DNA from: a virus
Lineage: Duplodnaviria; Caudoviricetes
DNA: 32,641 nucleotides
Virus record (IMG/VR): IMGVR_UViG_3300037483_001801
Location: 1 to 32,641 of that record
Direction: 5' to 3' (one strand)
The translations under genes were made by a program, and so were the position numbers. Shown here in pieces: positions 7,128-26,484 of this stretch (the stretch's first letter is position 1; the number at the start of each line of letters is the position of its first letter). The notes beneath the pieces were generated by a model. It made no database searches. It saw nothing but the letters and a program-made list of their open reading frames with translations, and was not told where the DNA came from.

Positions 7128-7384
7128 TTTCGACGGTTGTTCAGAAGAGGACCTTCGATTTAGTGGCCGGCGGCCAGAGGGTCCTTTATTTCCGGCATAA
7201 GCCGCACTGGGATACCAGGTTCAGGACGAAACCCAGGGCGATTATCCTTCTGAACGGCCGCAGGTGCAGGGCTCAGGCGGGTCAGCCGGTCGAAGACACG
7301 GGACATTCATACCAGGTGGTCCTCGGAGAAGAGATCCATTTCTGGGGAAAGCAGGAAACGCTTCCCCTGGAGGCGACGGCATGA
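7124..7384 (+). CDS. ASCH/PUA-like small protein
   Basis: KRTFDLVAGGQRVLYFRHKPHWDTRF...LLNG resembles phage ASCH N-termini. Confidence 0.45.
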   Translation: MISTVVQKRTFDLVAGGQRVLYFRHKPHWDTRFRTKPRAIILLNGRRCRAQAGQPVEDTGHSYQVVLGEEIHFWGKQETLPLEATA

Positions 7385-7882: not shown

Positions 7883-8113
7883 ATGCATTACAAGAACGGA
7901 CGTGAAGCAAAAGTTGGAGATCGGATAGTCGGCGTTGATTCTATGGGCAAGCCCGTCGCGGGCGTGCTGGTAGATGCCAGTTCAGGCTCTACGACGTGCA
8001 ACGGGAATGTTGTTCCCTTCGATGCGCAGACCTGGGGCGTCACATTGAGTGATTGTCTGCACGTTGATGACTTCGCACCGAAGCCGGCCGAAGTGGCCGA
8101 GTCACCGGCATAA
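7883..8113 (+). CDS. Small hypothetical phage protein
   Basis: MHYKNGREAKVGD...CNG...CLHVDD; SD GGAGGT. Confidence 0.75.
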   Translation: MHYKNGREAKVGDRIVGVDSMGKPVAGVLVDASSGSTTCNGNVVPFDAQTWGVTLSDCLHVDDFAPKPAEVAESPA

Positions 8114-8182
8114 CGAGGGATATCCCGGCGGGGCATGTTCCCGCCCCCTCGTCAGATGCTCCGACAAGTTTCGGGCTATCTG

Positions 8183-8989
8183 ATGAAGGCAAAAAAAAGA
8201 AAGAAAGGGGTTTTGATAAAGGTGAGAAAAAGCCAGAGAGGGCAGCCCAGCCAAAAGAAGGGCCTATATAGAGACTGCGAAGTCTGCGGCACAAGATTCT
8301 ACGTCCCGCTGTGTAGGATAGAATCGGCCCGGACGTGTTCGATCCCCTGCCGGAAGATGGCGCCCCATAGGAGTGGGAAGAAAGCCATTTACACGTTCAC
8401 CCCTCACATGGACGCCCTGATTTTCAAAGTCTATCGCGAAGAACAGCCCGCCCGGAAGGACAGGCACGTAAGGAAACTTGCAGAGGCTTTTAGAATGCCG
8501 AGGTGGAAGATCACTCGTCGGGCCAGGGAGATCGGTGCCTATGAGCCAAAGCTAAAGGAGCCTGTCTGGAGCGGAGAAGAGTTGAGGCTTTTGAAAAAAT
8601 TTGCGCACAGGCACCCGGAGGTTATCCAACGGCACTTCAAGAAGCGCGGGTTTAAGCGGTCTGTAACCGGGATTATCCTTAAACGCAAAAGAGAAAGAAT
8701 GATCGCGAACCTGGGTGCATATTCAGCATGTCAGGTCGCTCTGGGCTTGGGCGTTGACAGCCACGCCATAACGCGATGGATTGAGCAGGGTTTATTGGAT
8801 GCGACAAAGAGAGGCACTGCTCGGACGGCCTCGCAGGGCGGCGATATCTGGTTCATAAGAGAGAAGGACCTCCGCAAATTTATCATAGAGAACGTCGGCA
8901 TCATCGACATCAGGAAGGTCGAAAAATTCTGGTTCGTCGACCTTATAGCACACCGGCCGGCAGCCGCCTCTGAAGAGGACGCAGCATGA
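8183..8989 (+). CDS. Putative DNA-binding protein (Zn-finger plus HTH/Myb-like repeats); start uncertain
   Basis: CEVCG...CSIPC, WSGEELRLL...RSVTGI, VALGLGVDSHAITRWI. Confidence 0.65.
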   Translation: MKAKKRKKGVLIKVRKSQRGQPSQKKGLYRDCEVCGTRFYVPLCRIESARTCSIPCRKMAPHRSGKKAIYTFTPHMDALIFKVYREEQPARKDRHVRKLAEAFRMPRWKITRRAREIGAYEPKLKEPVWSGEELRLLKKFAHRHPEVIQRHFKKRGFKRSVTGIILKRKRERMIANLGAYSACQVALGLGVDSHAITRWIEQGLLDATKRGTARTASQGGDIWFIREKDLRKFIIENVGIIDIRKVEKFWFVDLIAHRPAAASEEDAA

Positions 8990-9925
8990 GGACAGCGTTC
9001 TCTGTTGACGAACTGATAATCGACAATTTCGCCGGAGGGGGAGGCGCGAGCCTGGGGATCGAAATGGCGCTGTCCAGGCCGGTCGATATCGCTATTAACC
9101 ACGACGCGGTGGCTGTTGCGATGCATGCCGTCAATCATCCCGGAACAAAGCACTATTGTGAAAACGTCTGGGACGTGGATCCCGCAGAGGCATGCGGCGG
9201 CAGGCCGGTCGGTGGCGTCTGGTTTTCCCCGGACTGCAAGCACTTCAGCAAAGCCAAGGGCGGCAAACCGGTCGAGAAGAAGATCCGGGGTCTCGCCTGG
9301 GTCGTCCTCAGGTGGGCTGCAAAGGTCCGGCCGAGGATCATCTGGCTCGAAAACGTCGAGGAGTTCATCACCTGGGGACCGCTTGTAAAGGACGAAAACG
9401 GCGATCATTATCCGTGCCCGAAGCGCAAGGGCCGGACGTTCAACGCTTTTGTTAATGCATTGAAGCGACACGGCTACGAGGTCGAGTGGAGGGAGCTCAG
9501 GGCCTGCGACTTCGGCGCCCCGACGATCAGAAAGCGTCTCTTCCTGAGATCCGAACCTGCGGGAGCCGCTGCATACGGTTACAACGCGGGACCGCTTTGG
9601 CCTTGTGACTGTCCGGGGAGAAGAGTACCAGATCGTGGATATCGGTATGCGCATGCTGGTCCCCAGGGAGCTTTTCCGTGCTCAGGGGTTTCCGGACTCC
9701 TACATTATAGATCGGGACATAGAAGGCAAGCCGATCACCAAGACCGAGCAGGTCGCCAAGTGCGGGAATTCGGTGTGTCCGGGCGTGGCAGCTGCGCTGG
9801 TTACGGCGAATGTCCGGATAGATATATCCGCGATATCCGGAAAGACTCGGGGATATCCCGACGTCGACGCGATAGATGTATCACGCAGGCGGATCCTCGA
9901 GGAGCTTCAGGAAGGATACATGTAG
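8986..9925 (+). pseudogene. C5-cytosine DNA methyltransferase with internal deletion and frameshift
   Basis: Motifs I (FAGGGG), IV (SPDC), VI (ENV), VIII (RKRLF) in one frame up to ~9546; C-terminal part (DPNLREPLHTVTT..RMLVPREL..QGFP..GNSV) in a different frame from ~9548. Confidence 0.85.
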
Positions 9926-9926
9926 C
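9817..9926. repeat. Array A: three 12-bp palindromic repeats (intervals 54 and 44 bp)
   Basis: GATAGATATATC 9817, GATAGATGTATC 9871, GATACATGTAGC 9915. Confidence 0.9.
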
Positions 9927-10943
9927 ATGAAGGAGATCGCGGAAATAAAAGACCGGCTGCGGGACGTGAACATAGTTTCTTTCTCCGGAGGTAAGGACAG
10001 CACGATTGTTCTTCATCTCGTCCTCAATGCCCTGCGTGAGTTCATGGCAGCCGAAGGCGGCGCGCCACCTCTTTATATTGTCACGTCCGATACTCTGATG
10101 GAGATACCCTTCTACCAGGAATACGTGGACCGAATCAGGCGGCAGATCAAGGACTATGTCGATGCGGCCTGCATTGATGCGGAGATCATCACCGTCCGCC
10201 CGGACTTGTCTTTAACTTTCTGGGTGTGTGTGCTCGGCAAGGGATATCCGGCCGCTCATATGGGTTTCCGCTGGTGCACCGGAGTTCTTAAGGTCGATCC
10301 TATCGAGCGTTTTACAAAGACGATCACAGAAGGCAAGGATTATACCGTGTTTATCGGCGTTCGCCGCGCCGAGAGTGAACTGAGGGCGAAGATCTATAAG
10401 AAGAAGGACTATAAACCCAATCACTACGCGCCGATCCTCGACTGGCAGAATCAGGACGTCTGGACATATCTTTTGACTGAGCCCTGTCTATGGGGATCTC
10501 ATGAGGAACTTGTGAAGGTCTACCGGTACAGCTCGGACGAATGCGTCTACGGCGAAAAGCAGGGCGTGTGCATCGGCAACGCCCGCTACGGCTGCTGGGC
10601 CTGTCCTCTTCAGAGGTCCACACAGCTCAACATGATCGGCTATCACACCGGAGATCCCCGTTACCGCCTGCTTCGCGAATACAAAGAGACGCTGGTAAAT
10701 ATGGCGAACAATACCGCTTATCGCTCGCGCATCAGAAGGAATGGCGAGGAAGGCGCCGGGCCTTTCCTGGTAAAGATCAGAAAGCAACTTTATTCAGCTT
10801 TGAAGAGGTTGGAAGATAAGACACAATGGCCGTTGATTTCGAGAGGCGAAGAAGAAATTATTTTTGATTACTGGACCACCGAAGATGATATCCACAACAT
10901 TCCGGACGATACCAGTCCAATGCTCTGGGAGGTTTGCGGATGA
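9927..10943 (+). CDS. PAPS-reductase family protein, DndC-like
   Basis: SFSGGKDS PP-loop, SDT, RWCT..LKVDPI, GVRRAES, RYGCWAC; start at MKEIAE. Confidence 0.85.
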   Translation: MKEIAEIKDRLRDVNIVSFSGGKDSTIVLHLVLNALREFMAAEGGAPPLYIVTSDTLMEIPFYQEYVDRIRRQIKDYVDAACIDAEIITVRPDLSLTFWVCVLGKGYPAAHMGFRWCTGVLKVDPIERFTKTITEGKDYTVFIGVRRAESELRAKIYKKKDYKPNHYAPILDWQNQDVWTYLLTEPCLWGSHEELVKVYRYSSDECVYGEKQGVCIGNARYGCWACPLQRSTQLNMIGYHTGDPRYRLLREYKETLVNMANNTAYRSRIRRNGEEGAGPFLVKIRKQLYSALKRLEDKTQWPLISRGEEEIIFDYWTTEDDIHNIPDDTSPMLWEVCG

Positions 10944-11356
10944 GAGAGGCGACCATTACCACCCACACACCTACATCACCTTATTGTTCCCATTGCGGGC
11001 GGAGATGCACATGCGGGACTGATAGCGTGAATCCTATAATTGTCATTGCCGCCATGCCTTTTAACTTTGTTGTTCCATCGACTTTTGAGTGCATCCAGAC
11101 GACTGACTTATATATCTCTCAGACCCGCTTTCTGGATGAACTCCGCGAATCGATTAGCGAGAGTGTTCCGGAACGCATAGACAAAATCGCCTACATGCGG
11201 TCGATGTGGCAGGTACCCAGGGCTTTGTCCGTTCCCTGTAGGGGCATGGTATGCCATGCCCCTACAAACCGGAGAAAACCCTTTCGCCGCCGTATGCTCT
11301 TTTCTCATAGCGGCTGGATAGGCCGCGCGGGGCGGGAGAAAAGAGGGCAGAAGTGA
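10940..11356 (+). CDS. Hypothetical protein (REP inside)
   Basis: ATGA/GTGA coupling on both sides. Confidence 0.5.
   Translation: MREATITTHTPTSPYCSHCGRRCTCGTDSVNPIIVIAAMPFNFVVPSTFECIQTTDLYISQTRFLDELRESISESVPERIDKIAYMRSMWQVPRALSVPCRGMVCHAPTNRRKPFRRRMLFSHSGWIGRAGREKRGQK
11238..11265. repeat. GTAG-family REP-like palindrome
   Basis: GTAGGGGCATGGTATGCCATGCCCCTAC, 27/28 identical to 6757-6784. Confidence 0.85.
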
Positions 11357-11643
11357 TTCCCAGGAGGAGTGAGATGAGAGAAACGACCGTTAACACCCTC
11401 GATCTTGCCAGGAAATGGACGCCGGGGCTTTCGCTTACGATCACGGCGATTTGTGCCCAGGATATCATCGAGCATTTCAGACTGAAGCTCGAATGTAGAT
11501 TCGACAAAGGGGATCTCGGCCGCGAGGAGTCGGCGCTGTTTACATACCGGGGTGAAATACTCCGATTAAAAAAGACCTGGATGGGCCGCTGGGAGCTTTA
11601 TCACGGCGACTGGCAGCCCGACCCCAGGTGGACGGGGGATTGA
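11353..11643 (+). CDS. Hypothetical protein
   Basis: Operon position; alternative ATG after AGGAGGAG. Confidence 0.6.
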   Translation: MIPRRSEMRETTVNTLDLARKWTPGLSLTITAICAQDIIEHFRLKLECRFDKGDLGREESALFTYRGEILRLKKTWMGRWELYHGDWQPDPRWTGD

Positions 11644-11644
11644 G

Positions 11645-11872
11645 ATGAAAGTTATTCATGACGCTGATCATCGCCTGAAAGCGGCTTGGTCCGGACGATT
11701 CAAAGGTTTGCCGCCTGAATCTCGCGAGGCGCTCAGATCAGCTCTCCTGGATCTCCGGGCCGATGCGATACAAAGGGCAGAACTCCAGTGGAGACGACAT
11801 AAAGCCCCCATGGCCTTTTACTGGAAAGTGGTCGCTGTTTATGCCGGACATCTTGCGAGGGCATTGAGATGA
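11645..11872 (+). CDS. Hypothetical phage protein
   Basis: Coupled to neighbours; WRRHKAPMAFYWKVVAVYAGH motif. Confidence 0.65.
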   Translation: MKVIHDADHRLKAAWSGRFKGLPPESREALRSALLDLRADAIQRAELQWRRHKAPMAFYWKVVAVYAGHLARALR

Positions 11873-12264
11873 AAAAAGAATCGAATCCACCGCCTCCTGA
11901 AGGGGCAGTCAGACCGCCGGCACCTCTTGGGCCGCCTCGGGTAAAGCAGGAGGATATCGAGAGGGAGGAATTAATGGATTTCAAAGTGATTCAAACGGCG
12001 ATAAATCCGACGACCGGTCTCACTGAACTCGAACAGAGGTGTATGGATGGGCTCATGATTGCCTATGCCTCATGGCTTAAGCTGGAACGTCAGCATCCGG
12101 ATGAAATGAGAGGTTTTGTCGATGCGATTCACAGGATACAGGATCTTTTGGCTGTACGAGTAATCCGCCGCCACTACCCAAACGGCTGGCCGACTCATAA
12201 GGTAAAACCACCAATAACGCCCGAAGCAAGCGACGGGATGCGGAAGCCTGGTGGAGCTGGCTGA
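11869..12264 (+). CDS. Hypothetical phage protein
   Basis: Coupled overlaps; QHPDE..F..AIH.IQ.LLA.R motif. Confidence 0.65.
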   Translation: MKKESNPPPPEGAVRPPAPLGPPRVKQEDIEREELMDFKVIQTAINPTTGLTELEQRCMDGLMIAYASWLKLERQHPDEMRGFVDAIHRIQDLLAVRVIRRHYPNGWPTHKVKPPITPEASDGMRKPGGAG

Positions 12265-12752
12265 TGCAGAGGCAGACCATATTCTCTCCCTGCCGGCAAT
12301 ATCGCTACACACTCTGGCGCGAGTTCGATATGTTCAATTCGTCCTATGCCATGTTCGTAGGGCTGAACCCCTCGACGGCCGATGAAGTGCAGAATGATCC
12401 TACGGTCCGGCGGTGCATCAATTTTGCGAAGTCCTGGGGATATGGCGCCCTCTGTATGACGAATATCTTTGCCTATAGAGCTACAGATCCCCGGGAGATG
12501 GTAGCACAGGCTGATCCGGTCGGTCCCGAAAACGACGAATGGCTCGTGCGCTGTGCGAGAGAAGCGGGCATTGTTGTAGCTGCTTGGGGAAACCACGGCT
12601 CTTACTTAGATCGCGACAGGGAAGTTATGAGAATCCTCGATAATCTGTCCTGCCTCGGGATCACGAAGGCAGGACAGCCGATTCATCCGCTTTACGTGCC
12701 GGCGGACAGAAAGACAATCCCTTACAGAAAGGATATTCACCCGGGCCATTGA
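12264..12752 (+). CDS. DUF1643 family protein
   Basis: YRYTLWR, GLNPSTAD..NDPT.RRC..FA, NIFAYRATDP, AWG, HPLY. Confidence 0.9.
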   Translation: MQRQTIFSPCRQYRYTLWREFDMFNSSYAMFVGLNPSTADEVQNDPTVRRCINFAKSWGYGALCMTNIFAYRATDPREMVAQADPVGPENDEWLVRCAREAGIVVAAWGNHGSYLDRDREVMRILDNLSCLGITKAGQPIHPLYVPADRKTIPYRKDIHPGH

Positions 12753-15700
12753 CCTCTGATTTCGAACGGATAAAAGACAAGCTGGACCTGTTGAGCGTGA
12801 TCACGCAAGAGACAGGTTTTTCCATGCGCGGAAAACACCTGGAGCAGTGCCCTTTCTGTCAGGGGCATGAGTGCTTTTCGATCTTCGATAACAATAAAAG
12901 GTATAAATGCCACCAGTGCCCCTCGGCCGGCGATGTGTTCACTTTCCTCGGGGAATATAAGTCCATCGCGGACAATTACGATGTCCTGAAGTATGCGGCA
13001 CAGCTCGCCGGCATCACGCTCACGGAGAAGGCCAGGCGGGAGGTAAAGCTCTCCACAAAGGAGCGGATATTCATCGAGGCGGCGAATTACTACCACGGCC
13101 ATATGCTGGACAACGGCGGGAAAAAATACCTGGTCGAGCAGCGCGGGCACAAGGAGGACGTCCTCAGGAAGATGCGCGTGGGCTGGACGGACGGCTGGCT
13201 GGTGGAATATCTCCGCTCGAAGAGCTTTACGGACACCGAGATCAAGGCTTCGGGCCTGGCAAAGATCCGGAAAACGGCCGAGGACGGGGAGCACCTGGTC
13301 GATTTCTTTGTGAAGGACGTTGCGATTTTCCCGCATGGGGAAAAAGAGAGCGTCTTGCATTTCACCATCAAGGACCCTCAGAAGAAGTATAAGTATCAGC
13401 TCCCGGAGAAGGAGCGGATAAAGGACTGGCGGTTTTATAACCAGGAGGCTCTCGCGAAGTTCGGGGAGATCATCGTCGTCGAGGGGGAAAACGATGTTCT
13501 GAGCGTGATGGATGCGGATGTGCAGCATGTGATCGGGCTCATAGGCTCGCCGGCGGAATATCAGATGAAGGCCCTGCAGACCTACTGCGCGAAAAAGCAC
13601 CTTTATCTCTGGATGGACAACGACGAGGACCCGAAGGACATCAAGGCCAAGGGGAAAGGCTACATCCGGAGGATCTGCGAGGCGCTTGGGAACCATATCA
13701 ATATCCGCGTTATCAGCTATCCTGCGGAGTTTAAGGACCCGGATGAATATTTAAGGGCCTTTCTCCCGGGTATAGACCGCAGGAAGGAGACCAGGAAGCT
13801 TCAGGATGAGGCCGTGGATTACGTCTCATGGGAGATCCGGGAGATCGGCAGGCTCGAAACGCTGGATGAACGACTGAAGGCACTGAAGGACCGGAAGATT
13901 TTCGCGGCCGTAGCCGAGATGGTGGAGGCCGAGAAGCTGGTCTATATCGAGAAGCTCACGAAGCTTGGGTTCACAGAGAAGGCCGTAGAGCAGCAACTGG
14001 AGTTTAATCACGATCTCCGGCAACGGCTGGCGATCTATTTCGAGCAGGTCCCGAAGAAGGACGCGGACCCGAATTATATCGCCTCGGAGATTTTCAAGAG
14101 CTTGTCTGAGACCGGCAGGTGGTACAGGGACCGCATGGGAGACGTGTATCTGCTCTATCAGCATCACACCTATTCGATCGGGAACAACCGGCCGTTTAAC
14201 GCGCTGGTCAAGAGGCTCACGAGCCTGCTGCCGACAAAGGAGCCGGGCCGGTCGGTCTGGGAGTCCCTGGCGAGCGAGGCTTATAACTCGGGCATACAGA
14301 TTGACCTGGCCTCGTGGATCCACACGGACAGGTCCACGGACACGATCTATATCAACGTGAACTCGCCGAACGCCGTGATCCTGAAGGTGAGCAGACAGGG
14401 GATCGAGGAGATACAGAACGGCATAAACAAAGAGGCCGTCCTGCTGAAGTCATCGAGGAAGATCCTGCCGATGAACTACCTTCCGGACGCGGACATGAGG
14501 GAGGGAATGACGGCCCTGAGGGATCTGGTCTTTGATAATATGACTTGTGAGCGCGAACAGCGCTACCTTATTCTTTGCTGGATGATATCGGCCTTCCTGC
14601 TGGACTTTACGCCCTATATGGGGCTGATGAAGTTCTCCGGCGCATCGAGCGCCGGGAAAACGACGGCCGCAAGGCTCCTTTCTCTTTTGATCTACGGCAA
14701 CGAGCACCTGGGCGACCCGACAGCCGCCTCGGCGTATGCGATCGCGGCGCAGAACCCGCTCCTGATCATCGACAACCTGGAGAGCGACGACTTTACAAAA
14801 TCAATATTAAAATTCCTTCTTCTTTCCGCTACAAAGGGAGGCAAGGAGAAACGCACCCAGGGGACGGACAGCGACACGATCCAGGAGACGCCGAAGGCCC
14901 TGGTCCTCATTACGGCCATAGAGCCGTTTACGAAGGGAGAGCTGATCAACAGGACCTTCGATATCGACTTCTCGTTCAAATTCAAGAACGATGCGTTTGT
15001 CGAGGACGAGGTGATCCGGGCTATCGTGAAGAAGCGGGACCTCATTATCTCGTCCGTGCTGAAGTTTATCCAGAAGGAGATCCTGCCGAATCTTGAGGTG
15101 CGGAAAGACTATATCACCATCCTGAAGAAGGAGCATAAGAACCATGCGAAAAACCGGACGGACGAATACCTGGCGCTCCTTATGCTCATGCTCGAAAAGA
15201 TGCTCCAGTATATCCCGTATTACGACGAGAACGACTTCCTGTACGGCACCCAGGAGGAGATCCCCACGGCCGCAAAGGAGATTAGAAACGCCTGGATCGA
15301 TTACCAGAACGCCAAGGCGAAGGAGACGGAGACGTCCTCCAACAGCATTATTAAGCTCCTGGACGGCCTGGTCCGGGAGTACATGGCGAAGATGAAGGGC
15401 CTCCAACCGGAGAACCACAAGGATTATCCGGACGAGGATGTCTTTGTCTACACGCACACTGACTATCACATCGAGGTGTTCAAGACAAAGGCGAAGAGCC
15501 ACTGCATGGCCTGCCATAAAATCAGGGACTCTTTTGCCGACGGCGAGAAATGCGAATGTACGGACGCACAGGCCGGCGAGATTTATTCGCGCGCGATTTT
15601 TGAATTTATAGCCACCTCCAGTGAAATGGTGGACGCGCTCGACCTGCTTTGCCGGAGCCGAGGCATCAAGAACCCTTACGGGACGGCCGCGATCTTCACG

Positions 15701-15835
15701 AAGCGCTTATCGAACGACGAAAAGACCCTGAAGGCCGCAGGCTGGGAGTTGGTGACGAAGGAAGGCCTCGAGCCGTACTTCAAGAAAGTCCAGGGCACGA
15801 GGTTCCTGAAATTCAGAAAGGTGCTGGTGAGATGA
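12749..15835 (+). CDS. DNA primase-helicase (Zn finger + TOPRIM + P-loop domain)
   Basis: CPFC..H..C..C Zn finger; VVEGEND, MDND, KDPDE TOPRIM motifs; GASSAGKTT Walker A; IIDN Walker B. Confidence 0.9.
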   Translation: MTSDFERIKDKLDLLSVITQETGFSMRGKHLEQCPFCQGHECFSIFDNNKRYKCHQCPSAGDVFTFLGEYKSIADNYDVLKYAAQLAGITLTEKARREVKLSTKERIFIEAANYYHGHMLDNGGKKYLVEQRGHKEDVLRKMRVGWTDGWLVEYLRSKSFTDTEIKASGLAKIRKTAEDGEHLVDFFVKDVAIFPHGEKESVLHFTIKDPQKKYKYQLPEKERIKDWRFYNQEALAKFGEIIVVEGENDVLSVMDADVQHVIGLIGSPAEYQMKALQTYCAKKHLYLWMDNDEDPKDIKAKGKGYIRRICEALGNHINIRVISYPAEFKDPDEYLRAFLPGIDRRKETRKLQDEAVDYVSWEIREIGRLETLDERLKALKDRKIFAAVAEMVEAEKLVYIEKLTKLGFTEKAVEQQLEFNHDLRQRLAIYFEQVPKKDADPNYIASEIFKSLSETGRWYRDRMGDVYLLYQHHTYSIGNNRPFNALVKRLTSLLPTKEPGRSVWESLASEAYNSGIQIDLASWIHTDRSTDTIYINVNSPNAVILKVSRQGIEEIQNGINKEAVLLKSSRKILPMNYLPDADMREGMTALRDLVFDNMTCEREQRYLILCWMISAFLLDFTPYMGLMKFSGASSAGKTTAARLLSLLIYGNEHLGDPTAASAYAIAAQNPLLIIDNLESDDFTKSILKFLLLSATKGGKEKRTQGTDSDTIQETPKALVLITAIEPFTKGELINRTFDIDFSFKFKNDAFVEDEVIRAIVKKRDLIISSVLKFIQKEILPNLEVRKDYITILKKEHKNHAKNRTDEYLALLMLMLEKMLQYIPYYDENDFLYGTQEEIPTAAKEIRNAWIDYQNAKAKETETSSNSIIKLLDGLVREYMAKMKGLQPENHKDYPDEDVFVYTHTDYHIEVFKTKAKSHCMACHKIRDSFADGEKCECTDAQAGEIYSRAIFEFIATSSEMVDALDLLCRSRGIKNPYGTAAIFTKRLSNDEKTLKAAGWELVTKEGLEPYFKKVQGTRFLKFRKVLVR

Positions 15836-15839
15836 CGAT

Positions 15840-16071
15840 GATACATCTATCACCGCGGAGCTCGGCGCCGAGGCCTCGCAGCGGCTATATCTATCGAGTA
15901 CTGCAGCAGGACCTGGTCACGATCGGCGATACATCTATCATCGTCCCTGGGCGGTACCTGGTTCGGCCGAAGATAGATATATCATGCCGGCAGCTGCTCG
16001 GGGATCCGGATCCACGATACATGTATCGGAGCTCAGGGAGGATCCCACTGCAGGGCCCGGATAGATATAGC
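15840..16071. repeat. Array B: six 12-bp palindromic repeats, exact 44-bp period, 32-bp spacers
   Basis: Repeats start at 15840, 15884, 15928, 15972, 16016, 16060. Confidence 0.97.
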
Positions 16072-16085
16072 AAAGGAGGGAGAGC

Positions 16086-16376
16086 GTGAAGTGTCCATAT
16101 ATAAAAGGGAAGAAGCCGTGCGGAGGCGGACTCCTCACAAAGAGGACCCTGGCGAACGGGAACAAAGTCACCAGGGAACGGTATTGTCCGAAGTGTCGGA
16201 ACCGTTTCATGACGGTCGAACAGTTCGACAGCCATATCTGGGCTGAGAAGGCCAAGGAACAGGAGCGGGTACTGCGGCTGGAGAAGAAGATGCAGGACCT
16301 CGACTTGGAGCTGGAGTTCTACAGAAACATCTTTATAAATCTCAAGTCCGCAGTGGAAAGGGCCGCGAAGAGATGA
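16086..16376 (+). CDS. Zn-ribbon protein (NrdR-N/Ogr-like) with coiled coil
   Basis: MKCP....C...RERYCPKCRNRFMTVE; SD AAGGAGG. Confidence 0.75.
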   Translation: MKCPYIKGKKPCGGGLLTKRTLANGNKVTRERYCPKCRNRFMTVEQFDSHIWAEKAKEQERVLRLEKKMQDLDLELEFYRNIFINLKSAVERAAKR

Positions 16377-16381
16377 GCCAG

Positions 16382-17005
16382 GGGGCAGATGATAAAATGA
16401 CATCCTTTGAAAGAGCCGAGGTGCTCACAAAACAGGGAATTTTCGTTACGATTCGTAACATTTTCTTTTTTTTCCACCTTCCGGAAAAGTTTTGGACCAA
16501 TCTTTCTGAAATCACTGCCCCTCTGCCCCTAAACATACCTAACCTTTTAATTTTAAAGTATAAGTTTAAGGGGCAGATGCAGGGGCAGAGAGGGGGCAGA
16601 AGGGGGCAGAAACGGGGCAGGAAACAGGCCGGTCGATTCATCTGCCCCCAGACTTTCTCCAATCTTTTCAAAGGGTTAGTCATTAGGGGGCAGAGGGGCA
16701 GTTCAAAAGATTGGTATCAAACACGTTTTTCGATGAGTTCTCTCTTTTTATACCTAAAAGAAAATAGATTGTTTTTAGTTATTCAAAAGATAGTTATTAA
16801 GGTCAATAGAGTCAATGATATCAACAGTTTAAATTTACTCTGTGCTGGGTCGGTATTGGTTCATCGGTTTCAGGTGGCTTGGAACGGAGCTAAAAAAGCT
16901 AAATCATTAACCGCACATTCTCAGATTATATGCGGTTATGCCTATAGCCGGTCTAATAAAATCAATAAGTTAGGTGGTTTAGATCAACAGAAATATGCGG
17001 TTAGA
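16382..17005. other. Putative replication origin: GGGGCAG iterons, AT-rich DNA, IHF-consensus sites
   Basis: 11 GGGGCAG copies on both strands (five at 10-12 bp spacing, 16570-16620); WATCAANNNNTTR at 16819-16831 and 16960-16972; downstream of primase-helicase. Confidence 0.7.
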
Positions 17006-17217
17006 TTCAAATCCAGTCAGATTCGGGAGGGTCAGCAGACTGGTCAAGGGCACCCCCCCTATCGAAAATTCAGCGGATTGTCCGGTCTCCCCTCCCCCAT
17101 TCATAGCTTTAAAATGGCTGGTTATTCAAAGGGGTTTTCAAAAGGCATAGTCAAAGGATTTTTCTTTTCATTTGTCTTTAGTTTTCGAAAAGTGGGGGGT
17201 CCGGGGGGAGGGAGCCT

Positions 17218-18246
17218 GTGCTGAGCTATCTCGCAGGATTTCAGCGTTCATTGCAGGTCCTAGAGGGGCTCAGCCCCGCGACGACGCATGCCTACAGCTG
17301 GAAAGTCCGTGAGTTCCATGCCTGGCTCGTTGGAAACGATGTCCCCGCCGTCCCTGCTGAAATCACGCGCCGGCACATCGAGCTATACCTGGAACACTGC
17401 TTTTACCGGGGCAACTCGAACCAGACCCGACACACCAAGCTTACCGCCCTCGGCAAATTCTTCCGGTACCTGAAATACGAAGGGACCGTCTCCGAGGATT
17501 TCACTGCCGAGATCCCAAAGCCCAGGATCCACGTAAACCGGATACAGAAATTCACCAAGATCGAAGTACTTTCCTTTTTCCGAGCTATCGATATCGGAAC
17601 GGAAAAAGGCCGCCGCGACGTCGTGATCTTCATCCTGGCCGCTTTCTGCGGCCTGCGCATCGGAGAGATCTGCAAACTCAGGATCGGCAACGTGATCGAC
17701 GACGGAAAAAACATCGACATCGATATCTCCGAGGACATCGGGAAAAAACACTCTATCAGATCAATCTATCTCTGGAAAGTCCCCGGAGAATACGTTCGCT
17801 CCTATGTCATCCAGCGCCTCTCCCAGGGAGCGAGAATACAAGACACCCTACTGGTGAGCTACAAACACGGCCGGCCCTCGAACAAGCCGCTCACCGCCTG
17901 CGCCATAGACGGCCTGATCAAGAAATATGCCGACAAAGCGAGCATCCGGAAGCCCAAAATCTGCTGCCACATGTTCAGGGCAACACACGCTTCCGATCTC
18001 CGCTATATCCGAGGATATGACTCGGCCGCAATCGCCGGCAGGATGGGGCATTCAAACATCGCCACCACAGACCGATACCTCCCCGAACGCGGGCGTATTC
18101 ATAAAATTTATCAGTCCTTGGCTGTCTACTGGAAAGAGTTCAATCACATCTGGGATAAAGGAGAAGCGCATGATCACAACAGCAGCGCCGGCAACACTTC
18201 CGGCCACGATATTCAGGGAGGTAACGCAATTGACGGACAAACCTGA
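17218..18246 (+). CDS. Tyrosine recombinase (XerC/D-like, with N-terminal SAM-like domain)
   Basis: LSPATTHAY...ALGKFFRYL N-domain; CGLRIGE, HMFR, MGHS, TDRY catalytic motifs. Confidence 0.93.
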   Translation: MLSYLAGFQRSLQVLEGLSPATTHAYSWKVREFHAWLVGNDVPAVPAEITRRHIELYLEHCFYRGNSNQTRHTKLTALGKFFRYLKYEGTVSEDFTAEIPKPRIHVNRIQKFTKIEVLSFFRAIDIGTEKGRRDVVIFILAAFCGLRIGEICKLRIGNVIDDGKNIDIDISEDIGKKHSIRSIYLWKVPGEYVRSYVIQRLSQGARIQDTLLVSYKHGRPSNKPLTACAIDGLIKKYADKASIRKPKICCHMFRATHASDLRYIRGYDSAAIAGRMGHSNIATTDRYLPERGRIHKIYQSLAVYWKEFNHIWDKGEAHDHNSSAGNTSGHDIQGGNAIDGQT

Positions 18247-18652
18247 GTGGGGAGCGAGCAGAAAACTATTGAACAGGCTTTTCGAGGGCTACTACAGAGA
18301 TTATGGCGAGGAGGCCGGAGGCCGGATCGTCAAGGCGATTATCGACATCCTGGGCGGCTGCCGGATGACCGTTCCTGAACGCTCCTGCAACTCCAGCAAC
18401 GGCCGCGAGATGTGGTCCCTCTATTGCTATCTCTGCGACCTCTTCGGCGACGCTTCCGGCCAGGAGATCATGCGCAAGTTCATCCTCGAACTGAAAAGCC
18501 GCCGCATCTCCTTCCCCGATCACCAGGACCTCTACCGCGAGGAGCGAAACCGGAAAATCCGCACCATGTTCACCGGCGACAATTACAAAGAACTCTCCGT
18601 GATCTTCGACCTCGACATCAGCCACGTCTGGCGGATCGTGAATGAGGATTAA
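18230..18652 (+). CDS. Mor/C-family transcription activator (start 18230 TTG or 18170 ATG)
   Basis: GG..MTVP and RNRKIRTMFTGDNYKELSVIFDLDISHVWRIV Mor-type HTH. Confidence 0.85.
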   Translation: MTDKPEWGASRKLLNRLFEGYYRDYGEEAGGRIVKAIIDILGGCRMTVPERSCNSSNGREMWSLYCYLCDLFGDASGQEIMRKFILELKSRRISFPDHQDLYREERNRKIRTMFTGDNYKELSVIFDLDISHVWRIVNED

Positions 18653-18656
18653 TTTT

Positions 18657-18689
18657 CTGCCAGAGTATGCAATAATCTTATGATATAAA
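18657..18689 (+). promoter_or_regulatory. Putative activator-dependent late promoter, copy 1
   Basis: CTGCCAGAnTnnGCAA...TGnTAT shared without gaps with 30900-30932. Confidence 0.5.
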
Positions 18690-18713
18690 AAATCCAGACG
18701 CCGGTCGTTCACA

Positions 18714-18820
18714 CCCCTCCACGGGGCCTGTCAGCCCGGAATCTGTAAACTGGTTCAGGTCAGTCGGGAATCCGCAAGGAAACTCCCACATCCTGACAGC
18801 GAAAGATTTCGGGTTTTTTT
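18714..18820 (+). ncRNA. Structured leader/attenuator RNA ending in terminator-like stem plus U tract
   Basis: CCCGGAATCT/AGATTTCGGG + T7; nested GTCAG/CTGAC, GGGA/TCCC and TCC-GCAA-GGA. Confidence 0.55.
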
Positions 18821-18840
18821 ATTTCCCGGGAAGGAGCGAA

Positions 18841-19026
18841 ATGGACGTCAAAGAATGGAAGAAGCGCCTGGCCGATCTGCTCAAAGAAAACCCCGCCATT
18901 GACGACAAGCTTACCGGCAAGATCGAAATCAACCTAAGCGAAGGCGGCGTGACAAAACTCTATAAGATAGAAACCGCCATGGAAGCCGACGGCAAGGTCA
19001 AGGTAACAATCAAGACAGAACTATAA
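18841..19026 (+). CDS. Small hypothetical protein (61 aa)
   Basis: SD AAGGAG; TGKIEINLSEGGV motif. Confidence 0.75.
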   Translation: MDVKEWKKRLADLLKENPAIDDKLTGKIEINLSEGGVTKLYKIETAMEADGKVKVTIKTEL

Positions 19027-19045
19027 ACCGGTCAGTGGATAACCC

Positions 19046-19145
19046 GATACATCTATCCGGGCCCTGCAGCGGGATCCTCCCGGAGCTCTGCTACATTTAG
19101 CAGGCGGCCGGCTCCTCGATCAGCTGCCGGCACGATAGATCTATC
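19046..19145. repeat. Array C: three 12-bp palindromic repeats at 44-bp period; inverted homologue of the end of array B
   Basis: GATACATCTATC 19046, GCTACATTTAGC 19090, GATAGATCTATC 19134. Confidence 0.95.
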
Positions 19146-19156
19146 AGGAGCTATTT

Positions 19157-19195
19157 AACCCGAAGCGGCAATCCCCGTTTCGGGTTTCCGCTTTT
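19157..19195 (+). terminator. Hairpin/terminator candidate
   Basis: AACCCGAAGCGG/CCGTTTCGGGTT stem followed by TCCGCTTTT. Confidence 0.5.
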
Positions 19196-19211
19196 ATATG
19201 AGGATTAATAT

Positions 19212-19799
19212 ATGAACATAAGTAATATACCAGTCGGCGAACTCAAGCCCGCAGCTTACAACCCCCGGAAGATCGCCCGCCAGACGCTCCGGACCCTGAA
19301 GGCCAACATCAAAGAGTTCGGCCTGGTCGATCCCCTCATCGTCAACAAAGACATGACCATCATCGGCGGGCACCAGCGGTTCAAGGCGTGCCTGGAACTC
19401 GGGTTCACCGAGATGCCCTGCATCGTCCTGGACCTTTCCAAGTCAAAAGAAAAGGCCCTCAATCTCGCCCTCAACAAAGTCACCGGCGAGTGGGACAAAA
19501 AGAAACTCGAAAATATCCTGCAAGAAATCGACTCCCTCGACTTCGAATTCACCGGCTTCGACGAAGACGAGCTCGCCAAACTCATCGAAGACGTAAACGT
19601 CACCGCCCCGGAATACGACATCGCGCCCCGGCTCATGGAGGAATATAACTACATCGTCCTCTTTTTCCGGAACACGCTCGACTTCCAGGTCGCTGCCGAC
19701 CACTTCGGCCTCAAGATGCAGAAAGAAGACAAGCGCGAGAAGATCGGCCTCGGCAAAGTCACCGACGGCGCAGCATACCTCCGGCAGATCGGCAAATGA
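19212..19799 (+). CDS. ParB/Srx N-terminal domain protein (phage DNA-modification-associated type)
   Basis: LKPAAYNPR...FGLVDPLIVN..IIGGHQR..EKALNLALNK..GEWD. Confidence 0.88.
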   Translation: MNISNIPVGELKPAAYNPRKIARQTLRTLKANIKEFGLVDPLIVNKDMTIIGGHQRFKACLELGFTEMPCIVLDLSKSKEKALNLALNKVTGEWDKKKLENILQEIDSLDFEFTGFDEDELAKLIEDVNVTAPEYDIAPRLMEEYNYIVLFFRNTLDFQVAADHFGLKMQKEDKREKIGLGKVTDGAAYLRQIGK

Positions 19800-19869
19800 G
19801 CCAGGCCGTCTCCTTCTGCCTCGAAATGCAGATCCAGGGAAGAAAACACCTGGTAGTGGGTCAGTTTAG

Positions 19870-20094
19870 GACTACGACTTTTTCCTCATGTCCCTCTACT
19901 GGAAGCGCTTCATCTGGCGCGACGACCGCTATGCCTTCCTCGCCAAGCACTACACCAACAAAGGCGGCCTCTGCTCGCACCGGTCCACGAACAAAGAGAT
20001 CGAGTGCATCAAGATCCTCCAGCAGAAATTCGGAAAACAGGTCGTCGGGACAGTGAAGGATAAACCGTGGAAAGTAGTTATAAAGAAGCTTTAA
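19870..20094 (+). pseudogene. C-terminal remnant of a GREB1/TAGT-like glycosyltransferase
   Basis: (stop)DYDFFL....RDDRYAF...NKGGLCSHR...E....LQQKFG resembles the EDYD..GG..R C-terminus of these enzymes; no intact 5' part. Confidence 0.55.
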
Positions 20095-20101
20095 AAAAAA
20101 C

Positions 20102-20130
20102 TTGCATAACTGTTAAGCATTTGATATAAT
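20102..20130 (+). promoter_or_regulatory. Strong sigma70 promoter
   Basis: TTGCAT-17 bp-TATAAT with extended -10 TG. Confidence 0.8.
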
Positions 20131-20186
20131 TTGATCATCTTAAAGGCAAAGCGGGGCCTTAGACGCCGCGAAAGGAGGTCAACATC

Positions 20187-21410
20187 ATGGCCAAGTATGA
20201 GATCGAGTACAGTTGTGGACACACCGACACCATCCAGCTCTACGGAAAAACCTCGGAGAGGCATCGTTATCTAGAGTGGGCAAAAGACAATAAGCTTTGT
20301 CCCGAGTGCTGGGAGACTGCGAGGCTTAAAGAGCGCGAAGAAGCCAGCCAACAGGCGGCACAAGAGAACACAGACTTCGGTCTACTACCACTTACCGGCA
20401 CAGAAAAACAGATAGCCTGGGCCGAGACGATCCGTAAGGACAAAGCGACATCACTGACCTCCGCAGTCGCATCCTACGACGAGAAGGCTGCAAAAATCGC
20501 AGCCGATCCCTCTCTACTTCTGAAGCATAACGAAGCATATCAAAAAGAAGGGTTCGATGATTTTGAACATGCCTTATTCTGCGCCCGCGAAGCAGTTGAC
20601 GCCATTATGGGTGAAACATCGGCCCACTGGTGGATAGATCACCGCGATGATAACATGGGGCAGCTTATACTGAACAAGGCAAAAGAGGTTGCGAAGACCC
20701 GCAAGGATAGTACGCCGCAAGCCGTAGACGCCCAAATAGAGGCAACTGTGCGCCCGGAGAAACCTGTGACGGAAACTGTGGCCGAGATCCACATCCGCGA
20801 AAAGGTTGTCGAGGTTGTATTTCCCGAGAAGAGGGAAGACTTCCGGGAACTGGTCCGGTTCAAGCTCGGGTATTCATGGGATAAGGAGAAAACCCGCTGG
20901 GCGCGCAAGCTTGATCTGAAGAGCGGGGCTGCAGAACATCGCGCTGCCGAACTCGGACACAGGCTTCTTTCTGCCGGGTTCCCAGTTCGCATCTTTGACG
21001 AGTCTGTCCGGGGTAAGGCTGTCAACGGCGAGTACGAGCCGGAATGCCACCGGTGGATCATGAAGCGCACTGCAGGGGAGAATGCCGGATGGTTCTCGAT
21101 CTCCTGGCCGAAAGATGAAGACTTCTATAAGGCCGCAAAGAAACTACCAGGCAGCCGCTACAGTAAGCCGGACGTTGTAGCCCCCCCTGAGCAGTTCGAG
21201 CAGATCCTCGATTTCGCCGAGATGTACGGGTTCAAGCTTTCTCCCGGTGCCCAGGAAGCGGCAGATGCTGCACGTAAGGTAAAAGATGCGGCGCTTACAG
21301 CCAAAGTGGAAGAGACCCGCAACGATGCCAGCCCGCCTGAACCCGGCGAGAGGCCGCGTAGACTGGCAGTGCCGGAGAATGTCGAGGTGGCTGATGAATT
21401 TAAGGACTGA
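20187..21410 (+). CDS. Hypothetical protein (first gene of SNF2/IbrAB operon)
   Basis: 407 aa; CGH...CPEC, LTGTEKQIAWAETIR, AHWWID motifs; SD AGGAGGT. Confidence 0.85.
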   Translation: MAKYEIEYSCGHTDTIQLYGKTSERHRYLEWAKDNKLCPECWETARLKEREEASQQAAQENTDFGLLPLTGTEKQIAWAETIRKDKATSLTSAVASYDEKAAKIAADPSLLLKHNEAYQKEGFDDFEHALFCAREAVDAIMGETSAHWWIDHRDDNMGQLILNKAKEVAKTRKDSTPQAVDAQIEATVRPEKPVTETVAEIHIREKVVEVVFPEKREDFRELVRFKLGYSWDKEKTRWARKLDLKSGAAEHRAAELGHRLLSAGFPVRIFDESVRGKAVNGEYEPECHRWIMKRTAGENAGWFSISWPKDEDFYKAAKKLPGSRYSKPDVVAPPEQFEQILDFAEMYGFKLSPGAQEAADAARKVKDAALTAKVEETRNDASPPEPGERPRRLAVPENVEVADEFKD

Positions 21411-22809
21411 CCTTATGGTCCATCAGTCTGAGGCGGTCGAGAAGATGCTGCCGACGCGGATAGGCGCGTTGTTTATGGAGATGGGGACGGGCAAGAGCCG
21501 GACGGCGATTGAGATTATCCATCGCCGTCTTAGCCGGATCAAAAAAGTATTCTGGTTTTGTCCTGTCTCACTCAAGCAGACCATCCGGCACGAGATCCTG
21601 AAGCACACGGACTGCACGGATGCGGATGTCCACGTATTCGGTGATAAGACAAATGAGCGCACTGCGCCTGTATGCCTCTGGTACGTTGTCGGCATAGAGT
21701 CCATGAGCGCCTCAGCGCGAGTTGTCGTCACCGTTAATAAGCTGATCACGGAGGACAGCCTGGTAATTGTGGACGAGTCCAGCTACATCAAAGGGCACAA
21801 TGCCACGCGCACACAGAGGATCACGAAGCTCTCTGAGCGTGCCCGTTACCGGCTTATACTCACCGGCACACCCATCAGCCAGGGCGTAGTGGACCTTTAT
21901 GCTCAGATGCGCTTTCTTTCCCCTAAGATCCTGGGGTATCGGTCGTTCTATTCCTTTGCGGCAAACCACCTGGAATATTCTGAAAAGTTTCCTGGCATGA
22001 TCGTCCGCAGCCACAACCTGGAGTTCATTGCCGCCAAGATCAAGCCATATGTCTACCAGGTCACAAAAGACGAATGTCTCGACCTGCCGGACAAGCTCTA
22101 CGAGACGCGGTATTTTAGTATGACCGGGGACCAGCGCCAGGCATATGAGCAGGCGAAAGAAGAGATCATTCCGGAGATTGAGAACGATACTTTCGATTCG
22201 GTGACGATCTTCCGTCTCTTCATCGCCCTGCAGCAGATCGTATGCGGGTTCTGGAACCAGCACCGCAAAGGCCGGCCAGTAGATCGTCACGAATTCGACC
22301 ATCGTCGCACAGACGTGCTGATGGACACGGTTACAAGTATCCCGGAGAACGAACAAATTATCATCTGGACGAAATACAAGCACGACATCGAGGAGATCAG
22401 CGCCGCCCTGCAGGAGAAGTTCGGCGGGGACTGCGTTGCCCCTTTTCATGGGGCGCTGAATGAAAAGAGGCGGTCTGCCCAGGTGGAAAGATTTAGGGAC
22501 GGTTCACGGTTCTTCCTCGCCACACAGAGCTGCGGAGGGCACGGTCTCACATTGAACGAATCGCACTATGTGATTTACTATAATAACGCCTTCAAATATT
22601 CCGAGCGTCAGCAGTCAGAAGACCGCTGCCATCGCATCGGGCAAGAGCATAAGGTCGTTTACATCGACATCCAGTGCAGCGACAGCATAGACGACCGTAT
22701 TGCCAAGGCACTGGCCTCGAAGGGGAGCGTGGTCGAGCAGTTCAAGGCAGAGGTAGACAAGGTGAAGTGTCAGAAGGGTAAACTGAAAGACATGGTGAAG
22801 GCGCTATGA
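21394..22809 (+). CDS. SNF2-family helicase/ATPase
   Basis: MEMGTGKS, DES, LTGTP, GGHGLTL, QSEDRCHRIGQ; start MNLRTD. Confidence 0.92.
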   Translation: MNLRTDLMVHQSEAVEKMLPTRIGALFMEMGTGKSRTAIEIIHRRLSRIKKVFWFCPVSLKQTIRHEILKHTDCTDADVHVFGDKTNERTAPVCLWYVVGIESMSASARVVVTVNKLITEDSLVIVDESSYIKGHNATRTQRITKLSERARYRLILTGTPISQGVVDLYAQMRFLSPKILGYRSFYSFAANHLEYSEKFPGMIVRSHNLEFIAAKIKPYVYQVTKDECLDLPDKLYETRYFSMTGDQRQAYEQAKEEIIPEIENDTFDSVTIFRLFIALQQIVCGFWNQHRKGRPVDRHEFDHRRTDVLMDTVTSIPENEQIIIWTKYKHDIEEISAALQEKFGGDCVAPFHGALNEKRRSAQVERFRDGSRFFLATQSCGGHGLTLNESHYVIYYNNAFKYSERQQSEDRCHRIGQEHKVVYIDIQCSDSIDDRIAKALASKGSVVEQFKAEVDKVKCQKGKLKDMVKAL

Positions 22810-24125
22810 GCGGGAAGAAGATATATCAGGAGATCAATGTCTACGAGGCCGCACAGCAGCGGCTGAAGTTCATCTTCGACAACTTCGATAATATTTATGT
22901 CTCATTCAGCGGCGGCAAGGATTCCGGCATGCTGCTGAACCTCTGCATCCAATACATGCAGCGGCACGGCATCATACGGAAGATCGGTGTGTTCCATCAG
23001 GACTTTGAGGCCCAGTACACGGAGACGACAAACTACGTGACACGTATGCTCACATCTCCGGAGAACCTGCAATATATCACGCCGTACTGGTGCTGCCTGC
23101 CGATGTCCTGCAAAACGGCGACCTCGATGCACGAGCAGTACTGGACGCCATGGGAGCCGGCGAAGCGAGATATATGGGTCCGGAAGATGCCGGACTATCC
23201 CGGCGTGATCAACCTCGATAATCATCAGTTTGATTTCTACAAAGAGGGAATGCTGCAGGAGGATTTTTATGAGGCATTCACACCATGGTATCATCGGCAC
23301 GTAGGCGGCGGTAAGGGCAAGACCTGCGCGCTCGTGGGTATTCGCGCACAGGAAAGCCTGAATCGCTGGAGAGCAGTCACCAAAGGGCGGTATATGTTTC
23401 AGGGGGTAAGGTGGACCACCGGCTGTGAGCCGGACGTGTTCAGCGCCTATCCGTTGTACGACTGGACTGCCGATGACATCTGGATCGCCAACGCCCGGTT
23501 CGGATTCGACTATAACAAACTCTATGACCTGTTCTACTACGCCGGGCTGTCCATCCACGAAATGCGCGTTGCCAGCCCGTTCAACGACTGGGCTATCAGC
23601 AGTCTTAAACTCTATCGGGTAATTGAGCCGAATATATGGAGCAGGATGGTAGGCAGGGTCAACGGTGCGAATTTTACATCCATCTACGGCGGCACGAACG
23701 CCATGGCCTGGAAGAATATCAAGCTGCCGGAGGGGCACACCTGGCAGAGCTATGCAGAGTTCCTGCTCAAGAGCCTGCCGGAGGAGACGCGCAGGACGTT
23801 CGAAGAGAAGTTCAGCACATCGATAGATTTCTGGCTGAAAAGAGGCGGCGTGCTCTCGGATGAAACTATCGAAGAGTTGCGCCAGATGGGTGTTAAGATC
23901 ACCGAGCACGGCAAGACGAAATACAAAACCGACAAGCGGCGGGTTACGTTCGCGGAATATCAGGACGACCTCGATATCAAGGAATTCCAGAGCGTGCCGA
24001 CCTATAAGCGCATGGCGATCTGCATACTCAAGAACGACCACCTCTGTAAATACATGGGCTTCAGCCAGACGCAGAAAGAAGCGAATAAACGCAAAGAGGC
24101 CATGGCAAAGTACATGGCGCTTTAA
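22806..24125 (+). CDS. IbrA/YbdN-like PAPS-reductase + DUF3440 protein
   Basis: SFSGGKDS, DFEAQY, GIRAQESLNR, YPLYDW..DIW, MRVASPF, RVNGANF, ILKNDH.C. Confidence 0.9.
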   Translation: MSGKKIYQEINVYEAAQQRLKFIFDNFDNIYVSFSGGKDSGMLLNLCIQYMQRHGIIRKIGVFHQDFEAQYTETTNYVTRMLTSPENLQYITPYWCCLPMSCKTATSMHEQYWTPWEPAKRDIWVRKMPDYPGVINLDNHQFDFYKEGMLQEDFYEAFTPWYHRHVGGGKGKTCALVGIRAQESLNRWRAVTKGRYMFQGVRWTTGCEPDVFSAYPLYDWTADDIWIANARFGFDYNKLYDLFYYAGLSIHEMRVASPFNDWAISSLKLYRVIEPNIWSRMVGRVNGANFTSIYGGTNAMAWKNIKLPEGHTWQSYAEFLLKSLPEETRRTFEEKFSTSIDFWLKRGGVLSDETIEELRQMGVKITEHGKTKYKTDKRRVTFAEYQDDLDIKEFQSVPTYKRMAICILKNDHLCKYMGFSQTQKEANKRKEAMAKYMAL

Positions 24126-24137
24126 AAGGAGGGCATC

Positions 24138-26480: not shown

Positions 26481-26484
26481 ACGC

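Follow-up and report, generated by a model that had tools for sequence, protein, structure and literature searches.

The window, by which we mean the whole stretch of DNA analysed here, is the complete 32,641-base record, given as one strand. It reads as part of a temperate tailed phage, judging by the families to which its open reading frames (ORFs) can be assigned, namely an HTH repressor (1651–2130), a CII-like protein, two tyrosine recombinases, a primase, a Mor activator and a weak match to a small terminase. Palindromic 12-bp boxes occur in it in three arrays, which lie among the following features.

8986..9930, + strand: C5 cytosine methylase in two frames (8986–9930 and 9605–9925), both of which cross array 1
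9817..9926, no strand: array 1, three boxes at 9817, 9871 and 9915 (steps of 54 and 44 bp), between the point where the cytosine methylase homology ends and the DndC-like start codon
9927..10943, + strand: DndC-like gene of the PAPS-reductase fold, with its start codon immediately next to the last box of array 1
12749..15835, + strand: 1028-aa replication protein with a primase domain, directly upstream of the main array
15832..16089, + strand: 85-codon open frame through the whole main array
15840..16071, no strand: main array, six 12-bp boxes at 15840, 15884, 15928, 15972, 16016 and 16060 (five steps of 44 bp), with five 32-bp GC-rich spacers that hold 18 six-base palindromes
16086..16376, + strand: 96-aa NrdR-type zinc ribbon with a 48-residue helix and without an ATP-cone, the likely binder of the boxes
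19046..19145, no strand: array 3, three boxes at 19046, 19090 and 19134 (steps of 44 and 44 bp), 66 bp upstream of a ParB-N-domain gene
19212..19799, + strand: ParB-N-domain gene, followed by SNF2, DUF3440/PAPS-reductase and N6-methylase genes

The arrays are real. A scan with a strict box pattern returned exactly 12 matches in the 32,641 bases, none of them outside the three arrays, in full agreement with the initial annotation, which had given the numbers (6, 3 and 3), the positions, the 44-bp period and the single 54-bp step, and had noticed no copies elsewhere. Dinucleotide shuffles of the window (n = 300) held 0.06 boxes on average, at most one, and zero pairs at 44 bp. Nor are the arrays an artefact of assembly, since contigs of run X2, from a separate study, cover 9797–10709 and 19043–19731 with 0 differences, and two 151-base pieces of run X5, also from a separate study, cover 15863–16150 with 3 differences each. 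Boxes four to six of the main array (15972–16071) recur, inverted, as array 3 (82 of 100 bases identical), and orthologues of the main array occupy the equivalent place in two related contigs, L001 and L029.

The 85-codon frame overlaps the stop of the primase gene (ATGA) as well as the start of the zinc-ribbon gene (GTGA), and is probably a translational coupler rather than a functional protein. Among the arrays collected below, all six with at least five boxes, three of which are orthologous, keep an open frame, against an expectation of 0.28–0.62 for each. The cytosine methylase appears to be broken; it has a short middle, with an apparent internal loss near 9524–9551, and the DndC-like gene matches TIGR03183 with an E value of 3.7e-49, below the cut-off. 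Between the zinc-ribbon gene and the integrase (16380–17200) lies a likely replication origin, AT-richer, with short inverted and direct repeats and partly conserved in L029. Further on, genes for ParB-N, SNF2, DUF3440/PAPS-reductase, ParB-N, MgsA-C-like and N6-methylase proteins are clustered at 19212–27611, which suggests a DNA-modification module, and are followed by a DnaN-like clamp with a long charged N-terminus (28061–29452).

The spacers had been described as differing from each other at a fixed length, a reading that missed their content of restriction sites. In the 298 bp of its nine spacers the window has 33 perfect 6-bp palindromes, where base shuffles predict 6.5 and dinucleotide shuffles 8.4 (maximum 19 in 2000); this density is seven times that of the window. 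GGATCC occurs five times and CTGCAG, GAGCTC and GCCGGC three times each, along with others, and the spacers read like a cloning polylinker.

Distribution of the arrays and of a shared gene

Pattern scans returned one viral locus, 74 genome loci and at least 120 metagenome loci. Arrays were called by eye, on at least three boxes or on GC-rich, non-repetitive spacers, by which 22 of the 74 genome loci (duplicates included) were accepted and 52 rejected, and three of the metagenome loci were accepted (L081, L107 and L197, with L160 repeating L107); among the matches listed, nearly all other metagenome loci were unrelated tandem repeats. With the window, the collected set spans 19 contig groups and comprises at least 36 distinct arrays, 20 of the 36 with three boxes, for a total of 123 boxes and 87 spacers. 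The period is 44 bp in 73 of the 87 cases, 54 in six, 43 in four, 52 in two and 55 and 41 in one each, the peak at 44 being partly built in, as the genome scan required one pair at that distance. In two scans with free spacing, polylinker spacers appeared only at periods of 43–54 bp among the matches listed; the viral one (68 loci) yielded them in the L001 contig only, and a relaxed three-box scan gave nothing beyond that contig.

Among the carriers are tailed prophages and P-type conjugative elements, as well as tailless phages (elements with a PM2-like coat protein) and a satellite-like element; the hosts named in the genome scan are mostly Nitrospirota, plus a deltaproteobacterium. In five host bins all boxes spaced at 44 or 88 bp were confined to the contig with the array, and the remaining matches stood alone except for one pair 1.7 kb apart; a scatter of phased boxes through these host genomes is therefore ruled out. 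Searches with the DNA of the arrays gave only chance matches of 24–39 bp, and no description of this box, period or gene was found in a literature search whose coverage of subscription papers was poor. Arrays are located at gene junctions within operons, in many cases next to a ribosome-binding site and crossed by an open frame, and the last box precedes a start codon by 14–17 bp in the window, L001, L022 and L107. In L027, L053 and L073 arrays flank small groups of genes, and in L004 the genes on either side of the array at 10001 appear to be convergent. The 123 boxes avoid perfect symmetry at their two free positions (8% against 27%), and the box carries almost no GATC or CATG, because the cores AGATCT and ACATGT are rare.

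In order to find a partner, the 1,789 ORFs of the 19 contig groups were compared all against all. The most widely shared protein family consists of homologues of 16086–16376, which occur in 13 of the 19 groups, whereas none of the 52 rejected box pairs has a gene of this family. The distance from gene to array, upstream or downstream, is 0–87 bp in 13 of 14 loci and 427 bp in the other. The scan for a co-occurring gene family proposed in the initial annotation thus led to an NrdR-type zinc ribbon beside the array. That annotation had favoured a phased protein-binding scaffold for a ParB, an RHH protein or a tyrosine recombinase; the scaffold is supported, while co-occurrence replaces these partners by the zinc ribbon. 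ParB/RHH-like proteins are ruled out by having few or no relatives in other array loci (the ParB-HTH protein of the window has none, and the ParB-N protein has one in L029 only). A tyrosine recombinase, present in 10 of the 19 groups, is rejected because it also occurs in L002 and L003, relatives of the window by their primase that have neither an array nor a zinc-ribbon gene in the stretches examined.

Searches in the reverse direction, starting from the protein, covered 401, 401 and 390 overlapping genomes and found one new full-length member, L221, all else being known loci or frames of NrdR length. L221 has a degenerate array of three boxes (44, 44) just upstream of the gene. In L236, which came from a box scan with free spacing, a distant zinc-ribbon gene (5064–5369) is followed by two boxes (5001–5052) that are 40 bp apart with an ordinary spacer, possibly a simpler relative of the array system; support from the reverse direction consists of these two independent cases only. 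Twelve loci with frames of NrdR length (L198–L200 and L211–L219) had no perfect box, and INPHARED phages and PLSDB plasmids contained no family member beyond one NrdR. The family comprises 60 clusters at E values up to 1e-10, and viral NrdR-N-terminal clusters are listed in the Atlas at 0.88–0.90, which we take as a lead only.

The family gene is absent in six of the 19 groups, and whole-bin searches of five of these gave only frames of NrdR length or nothing, so that for these groups one has to suppose that the protein is provided in trans or that its gene is lacking in the bins. Good arrays without a family gene in the bin were found in satellite-like, relaxase-bearing and conjugative elements (L015, L052, L063/L034 and L067), which may use the protein of a helper. 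In L054, a second, divergent zinc-ribbon gene (4814–5083) stands in tandem with the family gene.

The zinc-ribbon protein and its predicted complex

The 96-aa protein matches Pfam PF22811 with an E value of 1.9e-5 and a score of 24.9, under the curated cut-off of 27.2. NrdR chains were the top hits both in a profile search against the PDB (7p37_A, E 1.1e-6) and in a fold search, with an rmsd of 0.9 Å over 49 columns but an E value of 0.025. The model of the protein is a three-stranded ribbon with one helix (residues 48–95; pLDDT 92), and no ATP-cone family was detected in it. Of the residues that set specificity in NrdR, the arginine is invariant in 17 of 17 aligned members and D15 is replaced by threonine. 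The C-terminal arm measures 46–59 residues in 60 of 67 relatives and is never under 46, as expected for a ruler.

Modelling of four copies gave a score of 0.42, against 0.00 for the best control; this is exactly at the mark, a level that 20 of 30 solved pairs attained, as did 1 of 23 single chains, although the job was unlike that calibration in having four copies and its own alignment. Contacts agreed between runs by at least 67%, with a partner pLDDT of at least 71, and fell at residues 41–49, along the helix and, between dimers, at 79–94. The predicted complex thus consists of zinc-ribbon dimers in a parallel coiled coil, two of which are joined at their C-terminal tips into a tail-to-tail tetramer. 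The ribbon dimer may be remembered from NrdR, whereas the modelled tip-to-tip contact (79–94) has no counterpart there. By arithmetic rather than from coordinates, the heads of such a rod would be about 115–145 Å apart, near the 150 Å contour of 44 bp.

According to the accessible parts of two studies, NrdR places two ribbons on each palindromic box, bends the box in a kink of about 90 degrees and reaches across two boxes three turns apart, the sites being 80 Å from each other (PMC9110341, PMC12176259); the first of these also gives R17 as essential and D15 as selective (PMC9110341). The present system resembles NrdR in its homologous zinc-ribbon DNA-binding domain with the specificity arginine kept, in a palindromic box with an AT core, in the phasing of its boxes and in a predicted tetramer with two DNA-binding heads. 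It differs in that the protein lacks the ATP-cone, and hence nucleotide sensing, and has a long helix instead, besides the change of D15 to threonine. The period is 44 or 54 bp rather than about three turns, an array has up to seven boxes, the spacers are polylinkers, and no ribonucleotide reductase gene is found among the annotated neighbours of the arrays.

Restriction sites between the boxes

The 87 collected spacers hold 182 six-base palindromes against 66.5 ± 7.5 expected. The excess persists in the 55 non-redundant spacers (108 against 40) and in loci chosen only by their zinc-ribbon gene (125 against 46, and 92 against 38.5 when the window is left out), whereas the 52 rejected box pairs show none (26 against 25). 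It also remains when shuffling preserves purine/pyrimidine, strong/weak, amino/keto or column patterns, and these four kinds of shuffle rule out a single degenerate motif behind the palindromes. In the spacers, mirror and direct repeats are flat and inverted repeats with loops of 3–5 nt are not enriched; what is in excess is exact reverse-complement symmetry without a loop. Palindromes are centred about 4–5, 10, 16, 22 and 27–28 bp into the spacer, and no internal column is conserved across 73 spacers. Palindromes of at least 8 bp are somewhat more enriched than those of 6 bp, so that six-base cutters alone do not explain the pattern. Site diversity within arrays is no greater than chance (157 against 152, p 0.12).

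Orthologous spacers of the window and L029 keep their order and share 20–24 of 32 bases. Among 41 related spacer pairs, which are not independent, a palindrome centre was kept with the same word in 39 cases against 12.6 expected, and with a symmetric double change in 9 against 3.1 ± 1.8.

We compared this enrichment with the targets of known methyltransferases, whose prevalence was counted as whole-word occurrences in tables S3 and S4, the part of PMC4752239 used here; degenerate motifs were excluded, and 56 of the 64 palindromic hexamers were counted, the eight without G or C being left out. On these counts the enrichment correlates with prevalence (rho 0.41 over 56 words, p 0.002; within-GC permutation p 0.0014), with a rho of 0.67 among the 32 GC-rich words and of −0.10 among the 24 AT-rich ones. 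Words named in table S3 for at least three methyltransferases were seen 132 times against 31 expected, whereas words named for none were seen 8 times against 8.6. For the array flanks the same tables gave a rho of 0.17 (p 0.22), and the Biopython enzyme list, our first proxy for prevalence, gave no significant correlation (rho 0.20, p 0.12). Some degenerate or short sites are enriched as well (CCWGG 32 against 13, GCWGC 34 against 13, CCGG 79 against 35), and the common targets GAATTC, AAGCTT, TCTAGA, TTCGAA, GANTC and GATC are not. We consider it probable that the spacers are truly linked to restriction-modification. Mobile elements generally lose 6-bp palindromes, as stated in the accessible text of PMC10359461, and against this trend the present arrays hoard words used by methylases and nucleases.

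The closest precedent, missed when the arrays were proposed to be an undescribed system, exists in IncP-1beta plasmids, whose regions of clustered restriction sites are called possible integration hotspots and left unexplained as to function in the available portion of a review (PMC3590792). In R751 (L291) we found five arrays (18–128, 7010–7144, 14974–15168, 30995–31104 and 39158–39369), each with three to five palindromic boxes of 20 bp at periods of 28–59 bp. Their spacers contain 21 six-base palindromes against 9.7 ± 2.6, and the preferred words match those of the present arrays (rho 0.49 over 64 words). All copies of CTGCAG, TGGCCA, CTCGAG, GAGCTC and GGGCCC in the R751 backbone are in the arrays, with 0 elsewhere in it against 18–33 expected for each. 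One R751 array overlaps the start of an annotated adenine methylase, one is in klcB near an antirestriction gene and one follows kfrABC. KfrA is a rod-like DNA-binding protein, and is a candidate binder of the R751 boxes. The IncP-1beta repeats were presumably described in the 1980s–2000s, with a link to transposon insertion.

Both systems have several dispersed intergenic arrays, palindromic boxes and spacers rich in restriction sites, and DNA-modification genes follow arrays 1 and 3 in the window and one array in R751. They differ in the box, which is GC-rich in R751 and AT-rich here, and in the spacing, variable in the former and fixed in the latter. They may also differ in avoidance, as five words are purged from the R751 backbone and the depletion of array words outside the arrays of the window is not significant (O/E 0.69 against 0.88, p 0.20). 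The best BLAST matches between the two sets of arrays are 12–14 bp long, R751 has no zinc-ribbon family gene, and its 20-bp box has one lone near-match in L001, away from the L001 array. The layout is thus known but unexplained, while the box, period and gene were not found described; the present arrays are an independent version of this layout, with fixed spacing and a candidate binder.

Possible roles of the arrays

The arrays and the zinc-ribbon protein very probably form a protein-binding scaffold. The protein would bind the boxes and bridge neighbouring ones as the rod-shaped tetramer predicted above, and, by analogy with NrdR, each head could kink its box by about 90 degrees, which would make both spacing and helical phase important (44 bp, or roughly an additional turn). 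Since the arrays are at junctions of genes within operons, a bound clamp would be a roadblock to transcription.

The reading that we favour, tentatively, is that the clamped array is an operator whose spacers report the restriction-modification activity of the host: binding, methylation or cutting of any single spacer site by a host enzyme would release the clamp. A polylinker, with one or a few copies of many common sites, is what would be expected if the enzyme of any new host must find a site, and it would suit an all-or-none event at any single one. With the ATP-cone of NrdR lost from the protein, sensing would have passed to the DNA that the boxes enclose, and elements that lack the gene may exploit the protein of a helper. 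With the IncP-1beta clusters as a second instance, mobile elements may have evolved such a host-agnostic reader, a polylinker of the most common target sites between protein-bound boxes, at least twice independently. Some observations sit less well with sensing. Additional restriction sites should be a burden when the element enters a restricting host, a roadblock in the L004 array, apparently between convergent genes, would do little, and promoter-like sites in 8000–20500 are at chance level (6 against 7.3). If sensing is nonetheless true, phages and conjugative elements would have a new way to read host immunity. Unlike the IncP-1beta case, the zinc-ribbon arrays combine fixed spacing with one small candidate binder, which makes binding, bending, protection and switching testable with a 96-aa protein and 100-bp DNA.

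The main rival, which we hold to be unlikely, takes the spacers as break points that any restriction enzyme present may cut while the tetramer holds both ends; the break would then be rejoined, a compatible fragment captured or recombination directed to the gene boundary, making the arrays natural cloning sites for the exchange of modules. The polylinker design fits this, as do the two boxes that flank every spacer, the position at gene junctions with the open frame kept, the small gene groups flanked in L027, L053 and L073, the five words confined to the arrays in the R751 backbone and the mention of integration hotspots in the available portion of the review (PMC3590792). However, there is no captured fragment or jump in length, as the periods other than 44 bp stay within 41–55, orthologous arrays keep the order of their spacers and most of their bases, and among the listed joints of four runs zero fell at arrays. 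The benefit would also be long-term, yet the spacers look conserved.

Still less probable, in our view, are plain dispersed operators or an architectural wrap, with a protein that represses or compacts DNA at the arrays and with palindromes that are a by-product of stiff GC-rich linkers or of template-switch mutation near bound protein. NrdR is itself a repressor in the accessible text of PMC9110341, the last box stands close to a start codon in the four loci named above, the spacer between the two boxes of L236, where a related gene is present, is an ordinary one, and copying across the dyad could produce the symmetric double changes. A by-product would not, however, be expected to be limited to words that the tables used here name as real methylase targets and to be absent from the others, to leave little excess in the outer flanks (49 against 37 ± 6 and 112 against 107), or to recur with the same words between different boxes in an unrelated plasmid family. 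The layout is also compatible, by analogy, with a block of elongation as at the stoperators of cluster A mycobacteriophages, dispersed repressor sites that stop transcription elongation and that, in the part of PMC9283540 available, are asymmetric and bound by a monomeric immunity repressor. Both kinds of site are dispersed over a phage genome; here, unlike there, symmetric boxes form phased arrays, and the gene belongs to the replication operon, apart from the HTH repressor.

A decoy, in which clamped spacers occupy restriction enzymes, with no lethal cut, and thereby protect the remaining genome, seems improbable: common targets are dense in the arrays (33 of the 210 copies of the palindromic words in the window, in 0.9% of its DNA) and DNA-modification genes stand beside arrays 1 and 3, but one to five copies per site could not titrate the enzyme pool of a cell, and the five words without another copy in the R751 backbone leave nothing to protect. 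A transcript processed into 44-nt guide or structural RNAs, the alternative offered by the initial annotation, would suit a repeat-spacer layout inside transcribed operons, but is largely refuted and can be set aside as highly improbable, given the mean folding z of 36 arrays (−0.4 and −0.3) and of single spacers (−0.12 ± 0.15), the avoidance of self-pairing at the variable positions of all 123 boxes (8% against 27%), the pairing of neighbouring boxes below chance (130 against 152), the lack of matches over 16 bp outside arrays in 1.69 Mb searched, the lack of looped inverted repeats noted above and of any Rfam match, and the absence of Nop or Cas families.

The exclusion of CRISPR and TIGR arrays, made at the outset on the length of the repeat, the layout and the gene content, is upheld. 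Only the repeat-spacer look is shared with these systems. In the accessible text of PMC12045711 a TIGR unit is 36 nt long, with edge and loop repeats and two short spacers; the unit here is 44 bp, without a second internal repeat and without a Nop-domain Tas gene. Unlike CRISPR spacers, those of the arrays have no targets in the 1.69 Mb searched, are inherited in place and diverge by point change. Nop and Cas families were absent among the 53 ORFs of the window, a record that is possibly an incomplete genome, and among 125 neighbour ORFs.

Two other repeat families turned up in the scans. In large gut-type phage contigs (L223, L224, L244, L247–L249, L252 and similar), two box-like 12-mers stand in inverted orientation 56 or 60 bp from each other as a conserved pair, with no zinc-ribbon family gene near it. 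An unrelated family of metagenome contigs (L079, L082, L091, L093, L154, L156 and similar) carries GATACATGTATC every ~60–72 bp among degenerate sub-repeats.
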